Positions 18,996-26,297 of a stretch of DNA of 64,000 bases are shown here, one piece after another. Source of the DNA: an uncultured Spirochaetota bacterium (lineage in GTDB: Bacteria; Spirochaetota; Spirochaetia; SZUA-6; Fen-1364). Made by a program: the position numbers and the translations under genes. Position 1 is the first letter of the stretch. Every line of letters begins with the position of its first letter. Location of the stretch: contig CAVUXE010000022.1 in the NCBI GenBank assembly GCA_963745235.1, positions 32,001-96,000 of the forward strand, read 5' to 3'. A model generated the notes under the pieces. That model ran no database searches, was not told where the DNA came from, and was given only the letters and a program-made list of their open reading frames with translations.

Positions 18996-19068
18996 TTGAA
19001 TTGTCAGCCGATCCGTGATAGCCTACGATTATCGTAGAAAGTGTGGCTGTTGTCTACACTTTTCGTAG
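18996..19068 (+). promoter_or_regulatory. ald promoter with two 15-bp operator-like sites 31 bp apart
   Basis: TTGAAT-17 nt-TAGCCT with an extended TG; CTACGATTATCGTAG (19023-19037, perfect inverted repeat) and CTACACTTTTCGTAG (19054-19068). Confidence 0.7.
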
Positions 19069-19079
19069 GAGGTGGTCGA

Positions 19080-20192
19080 ATGAAGGTCGGCTGCGTCAAG
19101 GAAATCAAGAAGCACGAGTATCGGGTGGGCATGACTCCGCACTGCGTACAGTCGTACGTCGCCCACGGTCACCAGGTAGTCATCCAGGCAGGGGCGGGAA
19201 CGGATGCCGGGTTCGAGGATGCCGAATACGAGACGGCTGGCGCGCGGATCGAGGCTGACCGAAAGAAGATCTTCGCCGGCAGCGACATGATCATCAAGGT
19301 CAAGGAGCCCCAACCCGAGGAATACCCGATGCTGCGCGAGGGACAGGTCCTCTTCACCTATCTTCACCTTGCGGCGGACGAGCAGCAAACCCGGGCTCTG
19401 CTGGGACGCAAGATCAAGGGCGTTGCATATGAGACCATCCGTTTGCCGGATGGGACGCTGCCCTGCCTCAAGCCAATGAGCGAAATTGCGGGCCGCTTGA
19501 GCGTGCAGGAGGGGGCAAAATACCTGGAGAAGCCGTTCGGGGGGCGCGGTGTGCTCCTGGGAGGCGTGCCCGGCGTGGCGCGCGGCCGCGTGGGCATCCT
19601 GGGCGGCGGAGTGGTGGGCATGAACGCGGCAAAGGTGGCTGTCGGTTTCGGAGCCGACGTGACCGTTCTGGATGTGAACCCGAATCGACTTGCCTACCTG
19701 GACGATATTTTCCGCGGCGAGCTGGCCACACTGTATTCCACGGAGAAGAACATCCGGGACGTGGTGGCTGAGAGCGACCTGGTCATCGGGGCGGTGCTCA
19801 TTCCCGGCACCCAGGCTCCCCGGCTCATCCGGCGCGAGCACCTGCGGCTGATGAAAAAGAGGTCCGTCATCGTCGATGTGGCCGTGGACCAGGGCGGCTG
19901 CGTCGAGACCACCCATCCCACGACGCATGACGATCCGGTCTACGAAGTGGATGGAGTCGTTCACTACTGCGTCGCCAACATGCCGGGGGCTGTCGCCTTG
20001 ACGAGCACCCTCGCGTTGACCAGCAGCACCCTGTTCTACGGGTTGACCATCGCGGATCTTGGGCTGGAGGAGGCGTGCCGCAGGAACCCTGACCTGATGC
20101 AGGGCCTCAACATCTACGAAGGCAACTGCACGTACCAGGGCGTGGCGAAAGCCTTCGACCTTGCCTTCACGTCTCCTGGCACGCTCCTGTAA
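19080..20192 (+). CDS. ald: Alanine dehydrogenase
   Basis: KEIKKHEYRVGMTP, KVKEP, FTYLHLA, PMSEIAGRLS, DVAVDQGGCVET, HYCVANMPGAV. Confidence 0.97.
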   Translation: MKVGCVKEIKKHEYRVGMTPHCVQSYVAHGHQVVIQAGAGTDAGFEDAEYETAGARIEADRKKIFAGSDMIIKVKEPQPEEYPMLREGQVLFTYLHLAADEQQTRALLGRKIKGVAYETIRLPDGTLPCLKPMSEIAGRLSVQEGAKYLEKPFGGRGVLLGGVPGVARGRVGILGGGVVGMNAAKVAVGFGADVTVLDVNPNRLAYLDDIFRGELATLYSTEKNIRDVVAESDLVIGAVLIPGTQAPRLIRREHLRLMKKRSVIVDVAVDQGGCVETTHPTTHDDPVYEVDGVVHYCVANMPGAVALTSTLALTSSTLFYGLTIADLGLEEACRRNPDLMQGLNIYEGNCTYQGVAKAFDLAFTSPGTLL

Positions 20193-20199
20193 GGGACCG

Positions 20200-20634
20200 A
20201 TGCAGCCAGACGACACGGACTGGAAGATCATCTCCATTCTCAAGACGGGCGCCGTTCCCAACAACACGATCGCCCGCAAGCTCGGAGTTTCGGAAGGAAC
20301 CGTGAGGGCCCGCCTCAAGCGTCTCAAGGAGGCGGGCATCCTCCAGATCCGGGCGCTCATCAACCCGGACGTTCTCTCGAACAAGCAGCTTGTCATCGTT
20401 GCCGTCCGCGTGGCGGAGTCCAAGCTCCTGGAGCGGAAAGCCGAGGAGCTTGCGCGGCTGGAGAACGTCCTGTCCGTGTCCATTGCCTCCGGGCGCTACG
20501 ACCTGATCGCGGAGGTGCTCCTGGACTCCAACCGGGGGCTCGTGCGCTTTCTGACAGAGGAGCTTTCTTCCATAGAAGGCATCCTTGCCTCGGAAAGCTT
20601 CATCATGCTGAAGAACTACAACAAGTACGTGTGA
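20200..20634 (+). CDS. Lrp/AsnC family transcriptional regulator
   Basis: DDTDWKIISIL...IARKLGVSEGTVRARLKRL; SGRYDL. Confidence 0.93.
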   Translation: MQPDDTDWKIISILKTGAVPNNTIARKLGVSEGTVRARLKRLKEAGILQIRALINPDVLSNKQLVIVAVRVAESKLLERKAEELARLENVLSVSIASGRYDLIAEVLLDSNRGLVRFLTEELSSIEGILASESFIMLKNYNKYV

Positions 20635-20664
20635 AAAACGGGCGTGGAGCTGTTCGCCGCGGAG

Positions 20665-20682
20665 TGCTACACTGGCGAAATG
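20665..20682 (+). promoter_or_regulatory. Extended -10 leaderless promoter and original ATG of the epimerase gene (5' exon)
   Basis: TG-c-TACACT (20665-20673), 6 nt, then ATG (20680-20682); no SD; same architecture as 61772-61789. Confidence 0.65.
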
Positions 20683-22628
20683 GTGCGTCGTGAAAGCCGT
20701 ACCGTTCCAGCGGATGAAAGTTCCGCCCGGGTAAGCGTCGGAGCGCCCGGTAGCAGGGTCCAGTCAGAGGCCGAAATGTCTCTGACCGAGCGGACCGACA
20801 AAAGCCTCCAAGGAGGAAGCAACACAGCGGGCCGCAACGCGAGTGAACGCCGAGCAAGCCTCGTCAGAGTATCAGCCGAAAGGTGTTCAGGGTGGCCGAG
20901 CCGATCATGCCACGGCGAAGGCAACAGACAACGGACCGAATCCGAAGTGGACGTTGGACGCCCTCGGGGTATTGGCGGCGGCACGTTGTGACGGAATGGT
21001 AGGGAACACGAGAGGCCCTCCCTGGCGGCCCACGTCGGGCAAAGACCACGCGTATAAGGGGGAGACCGAAAGCGCGCGGAGTCAGGAGGGAGTCCGAGGG
21101 GTTCGTAGTACCTGAGAAGGCGGTGAGAAGCCGCTGGAGGGAAGGGACCCTGCTTTGAGTGTGCTGGGGCGTGGAGGTAAGCGCGAGGGCATGGTCGAAA
21201 GACCCAACAACCCCGAAGAAAAAGTGCGAGAACTCCAGCGACGGCTATGGACATGTGCCAAGCGGAGCAGGAGCCGACGTTTTCACGCGCTGTATGACCG
21301 GATCTGGCGGGGTGACGTCCTGCTGGAGGCGTGGAGACGGGTGAAGGCGAACGGAGGTGCCGCGGGGGTGGATGAGGTGTCCATCCGCGACATCGAAGAG
21401 CGAGGGGCGGGAGAGTATCTGAAGGAGATACAGAACGTCCTGAAGGCAGGCAGGTATCGACCGTCACCGGTGAGACGGCGATACATCCCCAAGGGGGACG
21501 GGAGGCAGAGGCCGCTGGGGATACCGACGGTGAGGGATCGCGTGGTGCAGATGGCAACCAAGCTGGTGATCGAACCCATATTTGAAGCCGACTTTCAACC
21601 GTGCAGTTGGGGGTTTCGACCGAGAAGGGGAGCGACGCAGGCAATGGAAGTCATTCGCGAGGCGGGCAACCGAGGGCATAACTGGGTGCTGGACGCCGAT
21701 ATTCGGGATTACTTCGGAAGCATCGACCATGGGAAGCTCATGGTGTTGGTGAAGGAGCGGATCTCGGACAGGCGAGTCCTGAAACTGATCGGTCAGTGGC
21801 TGGCGGCGGGCGTGATGGAAGATGGGACGGTGAGGGAAACGCTTGCGGGAACCCCGCAAGGCGGAGTGATCTCGCCGCTGTTGTCCAACATCTACCTTGG
21901 CTTTCTGGATCGCATCTGGGAGAGCAAGTGCAAACACCTTGGAATCCTGGTGCGTTACGCTGACGACTTCGTGGTGCTGTGCAAGAACAAGTCGCAGTGC
22001 AAGGAAGCCCTCAGGCGCGTAAAGATTGTGATGGAACGCCTGGGGCTGGAAATGCATCCCGAGAAAACGCGCGTAGTGAATCTGGCACTGGGTAAGGAGG
22101 GCTTTACGTTTCTTGGGTGGACGGTGCGCAAGTGCAGGAGCATTCAACGCAACCCACGCTGGCATTTCGTGCAGCGCTGGCCGTCGCCGAAGGCTATGAA
22201 GCGAATCCGATCCCGCGTGCATGAGATCACTGAGGCGCGAGGAAGGCAAGCGAAGGGCATAGGGGAGCTGATCGACAAGCTAAACCCGGTGCTTCGTGGA
22301 TGGGGCAACTACTTCCGAACGGGCAACGCGGACCGAGAGTTCAACCGAGTGGATGACTACGTGTACGGCCGTGTGCTCCAATGGCAGTGGCGACGGGGCG
22401 GACAGCGAACGCGCTTCCGTTTCGACCGATGGCCCCAGAAACGCCTGTACGAGATGGGCCTGCAGCGACTGAGGGGGACTACGCGATATCCCCAGGCAGC
22501 CACTCCGCGCAAGCACGGTCAGGAGAACTCATCGGTAAGCTGTGTGCCGGAAAACGGCACGCACAGTTTGAAAGGAGGTGCTGGGAACGGGTCGCTCTGA
22601 GCGATACCGCACCAGCTATCGACCAATG
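20683..22628 (+). mobile_element. Group II intron, full length, endonuclease-less IEP, inserted at a start codon
   Basis: 5' GTGCG at 20683; domain V AAGCTGTGTGCCGGAAAACGGCACGCACAGTTTG near 22537-22570; domain VI ending ACCAAT(G) at 22622-22628; encloses an RT ORF. The boundary is ambiguous by one base (20682-22627 gives the same spliced product). Confidence 0.92.
21191..22600 (+). CDS. ltrA: Group II intron reverse transcriptase/maturase
   Basis: RPLGIPTVRDRVVQ, DADIRDYFGSIDH, GTPQGGVISPLLSNIYL, RYADDF, LNPVLRGWGNYF (domain X); no HNH endonuclease domain. Confidence 0.97.
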   Translation: MVERPNNPEEKVRELQRRLWTCAKRSRSRRFHALYDRIWRGDVLLEAWRRVKANGGAAGVDEVSIRDIEERGAGEYLKEIQNVLKAGRYRPSPVRRRYIPKGDGRQRPLGIPTVRDRVVQMATKLVIEPIFEADFQPCSWGFRPRRGATQAMEVIREAGNRGHNWVLDADIRDYFGSIDHGKLMVLVKERISDRRVLKLIGQWLAAGVMEDGTVRETLAGTPQGGVISPLLSNIYLGFLDRIWESKCKHLGILVRYADDFVVLCKNKSQCKEALRRVKIVMERLGLEMHPEKTRVVNLALGKEGFTFLGWTVRKCRSIQRNPRWHFVQRWPSPKAMKRIRSRVHEITEARGRQAKGIGELIDKLNPVLRGWGNYFRTGNADREFNRVDDYVYGRVLQWQWRRGGQRTRFRFDRWPQKRLYEMGLQRLRGTTRYPQAATPRKHGQENSSVSCVPENGTHSLKGGAGNGSL

Positions 22629-23639
22629 AAAGCCCTCTTTATCGGCGGCACCGGCCTCATCAGCTCAGCGGTTTCCCGGCTGGCCGTGGAGCGCGGGGTG
22701 GAGCTCACGCTCCTCAACCGCGGCCAGAAGGGAGAGTTCTTCCCTCGCGGCGCCCGGCAGATCGTCGCTGATCACCGGGACCCCGAGGCCGTGCGGAAAG
22801 CGCTCCAGGGACAGACCTTCGACATCGTGGCGGACTGGATAGCTTTCACGCCGGAGCAGGCCGCCCGGGATGTCGAGCTTTTCTCCGGCCGCGCGGGACA
22901 GTTCATCTTCATCAGCTCCGCGAGCGTCTACCAGAAGCCGCCGTCCAACTACCTGATCACGGAATCCACGCCCCTTGCAAACCCGTACTGGCAGTACAGC
23001 CGGGACAAGATCGCGTGCGAGGACCTGCTGATGCAGGAGCACCGCGCGAGCGGGTTCCCGCTGACCATCGTCCGTCCGAGCCACACCTACGGCGTCACCC
23101 AGATCCCCGCCGCCGTGAGCAGCTGGGGCCACCCCTGGACCCTCGTTGACCGCATGAGGCGCGGGCGGAAGGTCGTCGTGCCGGGAGACGGGACCTCCCT
23201 ATGGACGTTGACGCACAATTCAGACTTCGCGAAGGGATTCGTCGGGCTGATGGGGAACATCAGGGCCATTGGCCACGCCTTCCATATCACCTCCGACGAA
23301 GTCCTGACCTGGAACCAGGTCTACCGCCTCATTGGCGCGGCAGCAGGGGCGCAGCCGGACATCGTTCACCTCAGCTCGGATTTCATCGGGGCGTTCGACG
23401 CCGAACAGGCGGCGGGCCTCATCGGGGACAAGGCCAATTGCGGGGTGTTCGACAACGCGAAGATCCGCGCCTTTGTGCCCGGTTACGTTGCCACGGTCCC
23501 GTTTTCCGAAGGTATTCGGGAGACGGTGCAGTGGCTCGAAAAGCATCCTGAACGCTGCACCATCGACGAGGCCTTCAACGCCGTCTGTGACCGCATGATC
23601 CGGGCGAACGAAGCGGCGCTCAGGGCAGCCGGGAGCTGA
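22626..23639 (+). CDS. NAD-dependent epimerase/dehydratase (SDR); intron host gene
   Basis: MKALFIGGTGLIS, FISSASVY, YSRDK (YxxxK), VRPSHTYG. Confidence 0.92.
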   Translation: MKALFIGGTGLISSAVSRLAVERGVELTLLNRGQKGEFFPRGARQIVADHRDPEAVRKALQGQTFDIVADWIAFTPEQAARDVELFSGRAGQFIFISSASVYQKPPSNYLITESTPLANPYWQYSRDKIACEDLLMQEHRASGFPLTIVRPSHTYGVTQIPAAVSSWGHPWTLVDRMRRGRKVVVPGDGTSLWTLTHNSDFAKGFVGLMGNIRAIGHAFHITSDEVLTWNQVYRLIGAAAGAQPDIVHLSSDFIGAFDAEQAAGLIGDKANCGVFDNAKIRAFVPGYVATVPFSEGIRETVQWLEKHPERCTIDEAFNAVCDRMIRANEAALRAAGS

Positions 23640-23648
23640 GCGCCTTTC

Positions 23649-24820
23649 TCACCGGACCTCGGCGCCCCGGCGCGCGGCGGTCTCCTGGTTGACGTGAACC
23701 ACCTTTGCCGGCGGAAAGCCGTTGAAGTACGTCGCGGAGGCGTGGCTGTATGCGCCGATCATGTCGCTGTACACGAGATCCCCGCGGCGCAGCGACGGGA
23801 GATTCTCCGCCATGGAGATCACGTCCAGCGCGTCGCAGGTTGGACCGAACACCGCGCTTATCTGCGTCGGGCCGCTCGTGAATGCTTTCACGGGGTACTG
23901 GCAGTGGTCGAAGATGATGCCCGAGTAGGTGTGGTAGACCCCGTCGTTGATGTAGTAGCACTTCTTGCCGTCCCGAACGGCGGTCCCGATCACCTCCGAG
24001 ATGGCATACCCCGAGGAGGCAACGAGAAAACGGCCGGGCTCCGCGAGGACCTCGATATCCTTCGGAAAGAGCCGGTCCAGCTCGGAGTTGATGATGGCGG
24101 CAAGCTCGTGGAAGGGCTTGACCGTTTCGTTGTACGCGACGGGGAAGCCGCCGCCGATGTCGATGAGGTTCATGGCCGTATATCCGCGGTCCCGAGCCTC
24201 CTGGAAAACGTTCGCGCTGAGAGTCAGCGCCTGCACGTAGTTGCCGAAGTTGGTGGTCTGGCTGCCCACGTGGAAGCTGATGCCCTCAACGGTCAGCCCG
24301 GCGCGCTCGGCCTCCAGGATGAGATCCACCGCTTCCCCCGGGGAAGCGCCGAACTTTGATGACAGCTCCACCATTGCCCCCGTGTTCGGGACACGCAGCC
24401 GGAGGGCGAGCCCCGCATGGGGCGCAAACTCCTTGATCTTCTGGATCTCGTCCGCGTTGTCGAAGGTGACCAGCGGCTTGTATTGGTCCAGCTCCGCCAG
24501 GGTCTGCGGCGTCTTGGTCGGGTTGGCGTAGATGATCTTGTCCCAGATCCAGTCCTGCCGCTCCCTGGCAGGCATCTTTGCGATGTTGTCATAGACGATC
24601 ATGAACTCCGGCATGGATGCCACGTCGAAGCTTCCCCCTCCTGGAAAAGGGTGCGCACGATCTCCGGGTCAGGGTTCGCCTTGACGGCGAAATAGGCCTG
24701 GACGCGCGGCAGATGCTGCCGGAAAGTGCGATAGCTCGCGCGGATCTCGTCATGATCAACGACGAACAAGGGTGTCCCGTACTCGCGGGCGAGTCCCTGC
24801 AGGCGGTCCAGAGAGATCAA
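23649..24820 (-). CDS. Type III PLP-dependent ornithine (or lysine/ornithine) decarboxylase, frameshift near 24635
   Basis: YGTPLFV, YFAVKAN (PLP lysine), SKFGA, SFHVGSQ, DIGGGF, AEPGRF, GPTCDALD; TTG start after AGGAG is tentative. Confidence 0.88.
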
Positions 24821-24839: not shown

Positions 24840-26297
24840 TCACTCACCCTCCCTGATGAGAAAGTTCCTGAATTGCCACGGGTCCGCGAGGTCGAAGTCC
24901 GGGTTGTTGTATCCCTCGAAAGTCCTGGGAATCTCCTGCAGAGGGGTCCAGTCCGACGGGGTGGAGATGAACCGCCCCAGATACGGACGGGCAATATCCA
25001 GGACGAAGTCATGGGGCAGGTCCTCCGGCACCATCACGCCCTTGCGGGGATTCTGGATCATCCAGCTCGCCGCCGCGACCACGGAAATAGCCACCTGCAT
25101 CGTGGTTGCGTTGTGGTGGGGCAGCAGCCGGCGCGACTCTTCGACGCTCAAGTCGCTTCCGATCCACCAGGAGGTGAACGGATGGCCCATGAGCAGCGCG
25201 CCCAGGGCGTCGCTCCCCGTCGTTACCTCGTCGGAGACGATCCGCTGCCGGGACTGCAGCGTGTAGTTGTTGCCGCGCAGCTCCGTCAACGAGGCAATTG
25301 CGCTGTCGCAGGGGCAGTAGGCGTAGTGGACGGTGGGACGATAGGCTGGCCTGCCATTTTCCGTAACAGTCAGCCGCTCCGAGAGGGTGAATGCCTCTCC
25401 ATGGCGAATGACCATGCCGTGGATTGGCCCCGAGGGGACCCAGGACCGCACCCAGGTATTGATGCCCATGCGGGCCAGGCAAATCTGGTTGCGCGGGCCC
25501 TCCGCATGCTGGAAGGCAAGCGGCGGGAGCCGCTTTTCGTGGGTGCCCCATCCCATTTCGGCGGTGGTGGTGCCTTCCTCGTGGAACCCCTCGACGCTCC
25601 ACGTGTTGACGAACTCATCCACCGCCTTCGGAACGCTCGAAAGCTGCGTGTCCCGCTCGCTGACGTGAATGACCTTGACGCCAAGCGACCGGGCGAGGTG
25701 GTTGAAGCTTCGGGACTCCAGGTGCTGCCGGAGGGCATCACCGGCCTTCCCGTTCACCTTGCCGTCGGACAGCGCGGCCTCCGCGATGTCGATGAGACCC
25801 TGCTTGGTGAAATGGCTGATCAGCCCCGGGTTGGCTCCATGCTCCAGCACGGCAGTCGGGCCCGGCTCCGCCCAGCGCGCAAGCCTCTCGCGGAGCTTCA
25901 TGTGACGCCAGTACAACGTCCTCTCCGTCGGGGGCGTGGCGCCGCTGACGGCATAGGGATCCCACACTTCCGTGGAGGTGTTGACGTACAGGACGCCGTG
26001 GTCGTGGCACCATTGCAGGATCTCACCCGCATCGATGTTCCATGCAAGGTCGACAACCAGGTCACCCTGCGAGACATGCTTCCCCAGGAGCGCGCCGAGG
26101 TTGTCCGGCGTCACCCGGCTCTGCACCACGGTTGCCCCCTTTGCGGTCCATTCCCGCAGGCGGGGGGCCCGATCCTCGAAGTCGATGACCGTGAGCTTCC
26201 CGGGAGCGGTGTCCAGGTGACGGAAGAGGATGGGGAGCGTGCATTCGGCAACGGCGCCATACCCGAGGAAAAGAATTCTGTTTGGGAAATGAGTCAT
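24840..26297 (-). CDS. hss: Homospermidine synthase
   Basis: LGYGAVA, HGANPGLISHF, HVSERDTQ, EFVNTWSVEGF, YRPTVHYAYCP, NATTMQV, DPWQF. Confidence 0.93.
   Translation of the reverse strand: MTHFPNRILFLGYGAVAECTLPILFRHLDTAPGKLTVIDFEDRAPRLREWTAKGATVVQSRVTPDNLGALLGKHVSQGDLVVDLAWNIDAGEILQWCHDHGVLYVNTSTEVWDPYAVSGATPPTERTLYWRHMKLRERLARWAEPGPTAVLEHGANPGLISHFTKQGLIDIAEAALSDGKVNGKAGDALRQHLESRSFNHLARSLGVKVIHVSERDTQLSSVPKAVDEFVNTWSVEGFHEEGTTTAEMGWGTHEKRLPPLAFQHAEGPRNQICLARMGINTWVRSWVPSGPIHGMVIRHGEAFTLSERLTVTENGRPAYRPTVHYAYCPCDSAIASLTELRGNNYTLQSRQRIVSDEVTTGSDALGALLMGHPFTSWWIGSDLSVEESRRLLPHHNATTMQVAISVVAAASWMIQNPRKGVMVPEDLPHDFVLDIARPYLGRFISTPSDWTPLQEIPRTFEGYNNPDFDLADPWQFRNFLIREGE

Follow-up and report, generated by a model that had tools for sequence, protein, structure and literature searches.

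Group II introns sited at start codons: a lineage that probably reads the -10 hexamer and the initiation codon of leaderless genes

Why should a group II intron sit exactly on a start codon and carry an ATG at each of its two junctions? The question is raised by a 64,000-nucleotide (nt) stretch of DNA from an uncultured Spirochaetota bacterium (contig CAVUXE010000022.1 of assembly GCA_963745235.1, positions 32,001 to 96,000; hereafter the window), in which an earlier note, made from the sequence alone, described such an intron at the start of an epimerase gene. We find that start-codon siting is a property of the intron's lineage and no accident of the epimerase locus. We further consider it probable that this is a mobile lineage specialised for the very start of leaderless genes, the exon-binding sites of the ribozyme (EBS2 and EBS1) reading the -10 hexamer and the start codon, respectively. 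The locus is laid out as follows, IBS denoting the intron-binding sites of the target:

20665-20673, + strand: extended -10-like box TGcTACACT, also IBS2, ending 6 nt before the ATG
20680-20682, + strand: 5' junction ATG, host start codon and IBS1, facing the CAU of EBS1
20683-22627, + strand: group II intron with canonical ends GUGCG...AAU, 1945 nt
22626-22628, + strand: 3' junction ATG (intron AAU plus G), in frame with the epimerase
22626-23639, + strand: host gene, NAD-dependent epimerase/dehydratase family, 337 aa, start MKALFIGGTG

With a slash marking the intron boundary, the 5' junction at 20665-20698 reads TGcTACACTggcgaaATG/GTGCGTCGTGAAAGCC (in short GGCGAAATG/GTGCG, the GTGCG occupying 20683-20687) and the 3' junction at 22616-22637 reads CTATCGACCAAT/GAAAGCCCTC (in short GACCAATG/AAAGCCCTC). 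The identification of a group II intron that lies on a start codon and rebuilds the ATG at its 3' end is borne out by a match to the Rfam family RF02003, by domains V and VI (D5 and D6), by a reverse transcriptase (RT) gene and by the ATGs at 20680-20682 and 22626-22628; the extended -10 box TGcTACACT, 6 nt before the 5' ATG, is likewise where it had been described. The host open reading frame (ORF) matches PF01370 over residues 4-217 (E 6.4e-22).

The earlier note had also pointed out that canonical boundaries leave the epimerase off frame by 1 nt, and intron-less orthologues agree. The genus is represented by 20 other genomes, 16 of which supplied 19 intron-less epimerase homologues, and all 19 open with ATG (GTG in one) AAR GYN CTN TTY, that is, MK[AVI]LF. 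The nearest (L036, where L labels denote loci; 84% protein identity, with the same AsnC-type gene end upstream) reads TATCCTgccgacATG AAAGCCCTT at the equivalent of the junction, or agtgcTATCCTgccgacATG AAAGCCCTT in longer form. Because the empty sites all encode MK[AVI]LF, exactly 1946 nt must be removed (20682-22627 or 20683-22628), which is the canonical GUGCG...AAU plus 1. Inserted DNA equals the canonical intron plus 1 nt wherever an empty site can be inferred, and the excised mobile RNA should thus be 1946 nt long. The orthologues without the intron have the layout TAnnnT-N6-ATG AAA GCC; counted by eye, TAnnnT lies 6-7 nt upstream of the start in 12 of the 19 homologues and a Shine-Dalgarno-like leader in 7, and judged from these upstream sequences the epimerase gene is of the leaderless type in the genus.

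Is the start-codon position peculiar to this gene? The genome of the window (G000; G labels denote genomes and C labels contigs), which comprises 104 contigs, holds three near-identical copies of the intron, all at TAYACT-N6-ATG. The copy on C99 differs from that in the window at 1 position, and the one on C54 by 5 substitutions and 1 inserted A. Their flanks read GCTACACTGGCGAAATG/…AAT/GAAAGCC, GTTATACTAATGGTATG/…AAT/GAAAAAAGC and GATATACTCCTGGTATG/…AAT/TAACCCAAG; near-identity at separate sites points to recent mobility, and the element is apparently active. A DNA search of 60 related genomes retrieved full or partial relatives in 7 (66-91% identity), and a protein-guided scan of one genome per species yielded 80 loci. 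By record title the hosts belong to Spirochaetota (the near relatives), Acidobacteriota (Bryobacterales, Terriglobia), Planctomycetota, Pseudomonadota, Actinomycetota, Myxococcota, Elusimicrobiota and others. After removal of duplicate flanks, 44 5' junctions and 52 3' junctions were extracted by script, and 15 further 5' junctions were read by eye.

The triplet preceding the intron is ATG at 51 of the 59 5' junctions, the rest being GTG (2), ACG (2), GGG (2), GCG (1) and AGG (1); the scripted set of 44 contributes ATG 40, GTG 2, GCG 1 and AGG 1, and the 15 read by eye contribute ATG 11, ACG 2 and GGG 2. A TAnnnT box lies 4-10 nt 5' of the triplet at 41 of the 44 scripted sites, with a spacer of 6 in 25 and of 7 in 7, against 67 of 2794 (2.4%) other ATGs in the same flanks, and the arrangement of box and ATG exceeds chance. 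The 3' junctions (n=52) read CCAAT/G in 45, CCAAC/G in 4, CCAAT/T in 2 and CCTAT/G in 1. When the flanks are aligned, the insertion sites do not prove to be unrelated, nor do varied bases come after the AAT: in 47 of 49 cases AAY is followed by G. The frame of the junction ATG has the highest G+C content at third codon positions (GC3) at 41 of 49 sites and is the longest ORF at 38 of 49; several downstream ORFs open with conserved-looking N-termini, for example MRMSALFGTTLREAPA and MLITHVVGARPNFMKV, and by eye we take them to resemble ProRS, WecB, MurA, MnmE and RsmI. With about 59 5' and 52 3' junctions in hand, the suggestion that a whole lineage targets initiation codons holds well beyond the epimerase.

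Some 3' junctions have features of their own. In G018, two remnants of the intron 3' end of 65-75 nt (L012 on C10, - strand, about 337116-337181; L025 on C15, 136302-136376), one consisting of D6 alone and the other of half of D5 plus D6, end in …CGACCAATG or …CGATCATG and abut the ORF starts MRMSALFGTTLREAPA (ProRS-like) and MLITHVVGARPNFMKV (WecB-like); as the intron body is gone, the junction ATG can act as the only start of a gene. L063, L064 and L073 end in CCAAC/G and have a common downstream ORF, (T/M)RDLVILF(I/V)H(L/V)(I/M)A, which looks, with some doubt, like a repeated, insertion sequence (IS)-like gene. The triplet at their 3' junction is ACG, and a start is therefore possible from the 5' ATG alone. 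At L068 a second intron 3' end, …AATCTACCAATG, lies upstream, at about nt 290-300 of the locus and outside our counts; the ORF behind it starts MDKLAEIARRRK, contains GNCESCMQWH and has an AhpD/CMD-like look.

How could an intron find start codons in unrelated genes? In an alignment of 38 distinct intron 5' parts, from 50 extracted, two loops vary amid fixed surroundings, and these are the two exon-binding sites:

20866-20872, + strand: EBS2 AGAGUAU, the variable stretch between CCUCGUC and CAGCCGAAAGG
20900-20916, + strand: EBS1 hairpin GCCG-AUCAUGCCA-CGGC (DNA GCCG-ATCATGCCA-CGGC), with its loop at 20904-20912

The EBS2 loop is always of the type A-N-U-N-U, the complement of positions 2-6 of a -10 hexamer. 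In the window the box ACACU faces EBS2 AGUAU with one mismatch, and elsewhere the match between EBS2 and its site is complete: AGAGUAU with TATACTCT (7/7), AAUUAU with ATAATT (6/6) and, at L103, CAGUAU with GATACTG (6/6), a site that is not TAnnnT. EBS2 AGUGU fits TACACT at 5 sites and TAGACT at 3 within one genome, and EBS2 AUUUU fits AAAAT, AGAAT and AAGAT. For the 39 usable of the 44 sites, the mean best 7-mer complementarity of a loop with its own flank is 5.19 compared with 4.63 +/- 0.10 when loops are shuffled, a value reached in 0 of 5000 shuffles, a significance that is overstated since sites in the same genome are non-independent. What had been seen as a '-10 box' next to the intron would therefore itself be paired by the intron through EBS2, an observation new to this analysis.

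For EBS1, the earlier note had proposed that a CAU loop recognises the ATG, and compensatory changes now carry that proposal. The CAU (20906-20908) pairs with AUG, and the UCAU loop is invariant save in three members: L085 and L086 have UCGU where the triplet is ACG, and L081 has UCCC where the triplet is GGG. These two independent compensatory changes (CGU with ACG, CCC with GGG) identify the CAU as EBS1 for the start codon. At GUG sites pairing with EBS1 would proceed through a U-G wobble. Beyond the triplet, CAUGCC is complementary to GGUAUG at the two other G000 copies and to GGCAUG at L007. A further U-A pair across the ligated junction, which the earlier note had drawn, is not upheld, the first nucleotide of the second codon being C at 20, A at 15, T at 8 and G at 6 of 49 sites. 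The favoured layout, a 7-nt IBS2, a 4-nt gap and the triplet, is ordinary IBS2-IBS1 geometry, and this spacing coincides with the distance from the -10 element to +1 in a leaderless promoter.

Are the boxes promoters, or simply half of a target sequence? TGcTACACT is presumed, from its sequence and position, to be the promoter of the leaderless epimerase gene. Alternatively the link to promoters could be incidental, the intron requiring only an 8-10 nt target (A-N-A-N-U, a gap and AUG) that in GC-rich genomes occurs mainly at real leaderless starts, promoter function being irrelevant both to targeting and to expression of the intron. The covariation of EBS2 with its sites would be expected on such an account, as would the L103 site GATACTG, with no TAnnnT box, and L090, which sits within a gene; the target is also rare, A[CT]ACT-N6-ATG occurring 96 times in G000, with 38 occurrences opening at least 100 codons. 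We nevertheless regard it as unlikely. Position 1 of the hexamer is T at 41 of 43 sites and an upstream TGn is present at 13 of 43, though neither is paired by EBS2; the leading T is present in just 31 of the 96 G000 pattern sites, yet in all 3 that are occupied; and every EBS2 variant, across phyla, is complementary to a -10-like sequence. Moreover, TAnnnT precedes ATGs that open at least 150 codons in G000 at 5.8 (spacer 6) and 5.9 (spacer 7) per 1000, with a background of roughly 2-4 per 1000 at other spacers and about 3.3 before short-frame ATGs, and the intron-less orthologues retain both box and spacing. The enrichment of T1 and TGn, the conservation in orthologues and the enrichment of spacers 6 and 7 together favour the boxes being real promoters.

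A number of observations weigh against so tidy a picture of -10 box and start codon. At 8 of 49 sites a frame other than that of the junction ATG has the best GC3. Three aberrant triplets, GCG at L071, AGG at L130 and GGG at L074, occur without compensation in EBS1, and pairing 5' of the AUG is weak in multi-copy genomes. The fold check of the EBS region that the earlier note had suggested gives no support: the single-sequence fold is no better than shuffles (z = -0.55), and EBS2 is paired internally in it. A scan of 20500-22760 for consensus sigma-70 promoters, which requires a -35 element, found none. Most records of relatives are metagenome bins, and in the complete records of Conexibacter (L094) and Embleya (L144) the 5' junction alone was observed. 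In a Bryobacteraceae bin the intron of L081 (about nt 960-2945 of the locus) reads TATACT-ataaac-GGG/GCGCG…CCAAC/G-AAAGGAGACCGC-ATG, and at its site a leadered transcript is predicted to begin, the Shine-Dalgarno sequence and ATG lying downstream, a hint that closeness to the promoter is more conserved than the start codon itself. Finally, in the complete genome of Engelhardtia mirabilis (NZ_CP036287), L090 (nt 916-2920 of the locus) lies inside a PAP2/haloperoxidase-like gene, at an out-of-frame ATG and no gene start, and its exons are in frame solely after canonical GUGCG...AAU removal, giving YPLPM/GCASAAA.

The L090 host can be looked at more closely. Where canonical splicing gives YPLPMGCAS, homologues read YTSGHSTFS, and removal of a further nucleotide would restore the PSxH motif of the family (PSAHGCAS) only if a C-run 10 nt upstream were one C longer; the homologues read FPEYTSGHSTFSAAAA. 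The short C-run would then reflect either a compensating -1 deletion or else a pseudogene or a homopolymer error. Neither of the two exon translations, each alone, gave a match in Pfam.

Which 1946 nt leave the transcript? Two placements of the splice sites would produce identical mRNA at ATG…ATG sites. In the first, the intron would run G-GUGCG...AAU and split the start codon as AU/G, both junction ATGs following from G1 and the AU end. Each of the 59 junctions has a G in front of GUGCG, while L083, L084 and L115 carry a U in place of the first G of GUGCG itself; the 3' end would be A-Y, with an invariant penultimate A and a last nucleotide U or C; and a G follows this end at 47 of 49 sites, like a conserved +1. 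This placement requires an extra nucleotide after G1, for which we know of no example in group II introns. It would also put the bulged A of D6 5 nt before the last intron nucleotide rather than the 6 of the RF00029 consensus, would make the conserved C of EBS1 face an intron nucleotide, and would have L003 and L008 (AAT/T) start with AUU, although homologues of the L003 host gene begin ATG AAT CCA behind TACCCT-N6. There is a parallel in groEL introns, which split the stop codon as UA/A between nucleotides 2 and 3 (described in PMC12584367). On balance this placement is a serious candidate that falls somewhat short of being probable.

In the second placement, AUG/GUGCG…AAUG/, the 3' splice site would lie 1 nt beyond the AY and the intron would carry a spare AUG at its 3' end. 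It keeps GUGCG canonical in most members, allows the whole triplet (3 nt) to pair with EBS1 and places 6 nt behind the bulged A, in agreement with the RF00029 consensus and with the sister clade described below (…A-CUC-UAU/), with no indel at either end; L003 and L008 would still yield AUG and an in-frame ORF. Its costs are an intron end of YG or UU instead of AY, a G1 that is U in three members (two of which, L083 and L084, are identical copies at different sites) and 3' exon recognition that is entirely missing. It, too, is well worth considering while not reaching an even chance.

A third account would take the canonical ends at face value. Splicing of GUGCG...AAU would leave an extra G and a frameshifted mRNA, and the host protein would be made from the junction AUG of unspliced RNA or be lost, which would make the intron a parasite of gene starts and no neutral passenger. 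Both canonical end motifs are present, the L090 halves are in frame solely after canonical removal, with a missing C that resembles a compensating -1, and the G018 remnants before the ProRS-like and WecB-like genes have the junction ATG as the only start. We consider this account improbable. Reverse splicing of a 1945-nt RNA cannot supply the extra nucleotide observed, essential-looking genes hold the intron, neither a Shine-Dalgarno sequence nor a promoter was seen 5' of the junction ATG, and L090 may owe its C-run to an assembly error, or its host gene may be a pseudogene.

Returning to an intron that recognises the -10 hexamer and start codon of leaderless genes and moves as a 1946-nt RNA, we infer the following cycle. 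The intron RNA would read the coding strand, EBS2 (20866-20872) pairing with -10 positions 2-6 and the next 1-2 nt and EBS1 (CAU and up to 3 further nt, 20906-20911) with the start codon and the nucleotides preceding it, and the ribonucleoprotein would reverse-splice into that strand at the start codon. With no endonuclease of its own, it would take its primers from the replication fork, as described for other endonuclease-less introns. Insertion would leave an ATG at each junction, so that the host ORF would retain an in-frame ATG, and the host promoter would transcribe the new copy from the A of the 5' ATG, which would limit the 5' exon to 2-3 nt. A full exon would be supplied by transcription that reads through from upstream genes (in this case the AsnC-type gene), excision of 1946 nt would restore the native leaderless mRNA, and the junction ATG would serve as the start once the remaining intron is lost. 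The mechanistic puzzle is twofold: the inserted DNA exceeds the canonical intron by 1 nt, and the 5' exon may measure just 2-3 nt. A more speculative idea, which we rate as rather doubtful, is that the ribozyme has evolved for transcripts whose first nucleotide is the A of the start codon, with pppAU(G) as the whole 5' exon, a shifted boundary and an EBS2 kept complementary to -10 sequences so that copies land behind promoters; if true, pppAU(G) would be the shortest natural exon known. Targeting may also take advantage of the coding strand being single-stranded in the open promoter complex, and the copies would in that case serve as natural labels of leaderless promoters in phyla whose leaderless genes have yet to be charted.

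What kind of intron is it? The remaining parts of the element are:

20708-20842, + strand: domain I core motif, RF02003 (Rfam group-II-D1D4-4), 96 bits against a gathering score of 49
22536-22570, + strand: domain V with AGC triad and AC bulge, from the RF00029 alignment and alifold
22574-22624, + strand: domain VI with GG/CC basal pairs, bulged A at 22622 and an inner hairpin, from alifold covariation
21191-22600, + strand: intron-encoded protein (IEP), 469 aa, RT and maturase with YADD intact, by Pfam

The RF02003 match is the sole gathering-level RNA match within the 64 kb in an Rfam scan, and RF00029 (D5/D6) matches 22535-22627 with 36.4 bits, just below its gathering score of 40 (E 6e-5). 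Alifold of 34 sequences retains 14 of 14 pairs in D5, with compensatory changes in 5, and shows a bulged (U/G)A in D6, with covariation in its upper stem; the bulged A at 22622 is presumed to be the branch point. The ribozyme is IIB-like and about 535 nt long, and GUGCGUCGUGAAAGCCGUAC joins the RF02003 core without a gap at intron nt 26, leaving no large 5'-subterminal insert in the window intron. An insert of 30-55 nt directly after GUGCGUCCUGA (alignment columns 13-65) is present in L079, L083, L086, L090, L091 and L122, from Planctomycetota and Steroidobacteraceae. Alifold of intron nt 200-560 in 29 sequences revealed no gamma-gamma' covariation; GGGAGUCCGAG is invariant, which makes the comparison of gamma-gamma' with AAC or AAUU ends uninformative.

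The ORF of the IEP belongs to domain IV and extends through D5 into D6. Its Pfam matches are RVT_1 (E 5.6e-37) and GIIM (E 3.7e-17) alone, with no endonuclease or HNH domain found, which makes it an RT with a maturase domain and without an endonuclease domain; RTs of the CL1 type near EcI5 have D/En domains. Its nearest solved structures in the PDB are group II intron RTs (7uim, E 9e-61). Two further features were considered as candidates and set aside. An ORF from the 5' ATG into domain I (20680-20991, + strand) was rejected as a coding feature, its length not being conserved (103 codons in the window, 161-162 in Bryobacterales relatives and 9-266 elsewhere, one frame leaving the locus), and, given a leaderless transcript, ribosomes could still read from the 5' ATG into the ribozyme. 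AAGGAGG at the 5' base of D6 was rejected as a split ribosome-binding site for the junction AUG; most members have AGGGG in its place, and the motif is part of the D6 helix.

An RT tree of 73 of 81 rows, 8 with ORFs shorter than 330 aa having been left out, places 44 rows on a single branch with a local support of 90, on which the start-codon and -10 type of site is the only one. Deeper members (Conexibacter, Steroidobacteraceae, Elusimicrobiota) are unplaced beside a Firmicutes clade. This sister clade of 21 rows has other, conserved insertion sites and a 3' end …CUCUACUCUAUC, and two 'ATG' labels within it were dismissed as chance regular-expression matches outside the intron. One locus, L147 (G008, C13, 188900-193000), is a twintron whose inner element of about 1.85 kb starts GGTGCGCC, has its own RT of about 438 aa and splits the outer RT gene at its YADD codons.

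Upstream of the box in the window stands one gene of consequence for the cycle proposed above:

20161-20634, + strand: Lrp/AsnC-type regulator gene, ending 45 nt upstream of the ATG

Transcripts reading through from this gene might bear the full 5' exon. A consensus scan of 20500-22760 found no + strand terminator-like site between this gene and the epimerase, and the 2 terminator-like sites in that region, both on the minus strand, are at chance level. By eye, the neighbouring ORFs are alanine dehydrogenase-like (19041-20192, +), like a pyridoxal phosphate-dependent decarboxylase of the ornithine/diaminopimelate type (23649-24623, -) and like a saccharopine/homospermidine-synthase-type dehydrogenase (24840-26297, -), and they might, questionably, make up a polyamine cluster.

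In Acidobacteriota, Planctomycetota and Spirochaetota, phyla with few studies of leaderless initiation, the copies point to dozens of genes that are likely to be leaderless. Cultured carriers exist (Conexibacter sp. S30A1, Engelhardtia mirabilis Pla133 and Embleya sp. NBC_00896), and a retargetable intron that lands at +1 to +3 of a chosen promoter could be a genetic tool.

How does the lineage compare with known systems? Searches of the main text of openly readable papers turned up none that describes group II introns at leaderless genes or an EBS2 paired with a -10 box. The earlier note had cited a precedent for introns at translation signals, and a partial one is the IIB1 lineage found at start and stop codons in housekeeping genes (Avi.groEL, EcKTE56.groEL; Michel et al. 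2007, via a 2025 paper of the Costa laboratory, PMC12584367). According to PMC12584367, the groEL intron lies between nucleotides 2 and 3 of the stop codon, its first G rebuilding the stop, and is an active retroelement expressed from the host gene transcript, within a proteobacterial lineage with a CL1-type RT and always an insert of 300-700 nt at the base of domain I. Compared by these descriptions, the two share insertion at a translation signal and the same logic of rebuilding the codon at the junction. Where the likeness ends is that, unlike the IIB1 lineage, the window intron has no 300-700 nt insert and its RT no endonuclease domain by Pfam, its hosts are Spirochaetota, Acidobacteriota, Planctomycetota and others, and its lineage enters a wide range of unrelated genes where the other keeps to one that is conserved; the text of PMC12584367 available to us contains no mention of -10 pairing or leaderless genes. 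The 30-55 nt inserts of some members stand at the spot where the IIB1 lineage reportedly holds a 300-700 nt subdomain Ia.

Small endonuclease-less introns offer a second comparison. As summarised in PMC3753933, IIE and IIF ribozymes measure 450-700 nt, EBS1 is decisive, and EBS2 is dispensable for splicing and thought to serve homing. By description, the window intron resembles classes D, E and F (RmInt1, Cl.be.I2, Pe.th.I2) in combining a small IIB-like ribozyme with an RT lacking an endonuclease; unlike the window lineage, those classes, so far as these descriptions go, have ordinary gene or IS targets and canonical ends. Group IIC introns, as described in PMC12584367 and PMC3753933, target terminators and attC sites, a generic signal, with an endonuclease-less RT, a short IBS1 and many sites. 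On that description the present lineage is like them in targeting a generic expression signal, no single gene, and in having an endonuclease-less RT, a short effective IBS1 and many different sites per genome. However, group IIC recognises a DNA hairpin and has no EBS2, whereas the window lineage has a covarying EBS2 and a D5 of 34 nt with an AC bulge, its flanks hold -10-like boxes and no hairpins, and it targets the beginning of the transcription unit where group IIC targets the end. In IIC-attC introns an outward promoter inside the intron drives the downstream gene, according to PMC3001079; the window intron likewise supplies an expression signal downstream, here a start codon at the 3' junction, no outward promoter having been found in the consensus scan. 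To the two kinds of group II intron that target signals, the IIC introns of terminators and attC sites and the IIB1 introns of start and stop codons, the lineage would add a third, and what would set it apart is that a -10 element and a start codon are both read by RNA-DNA base pairing.

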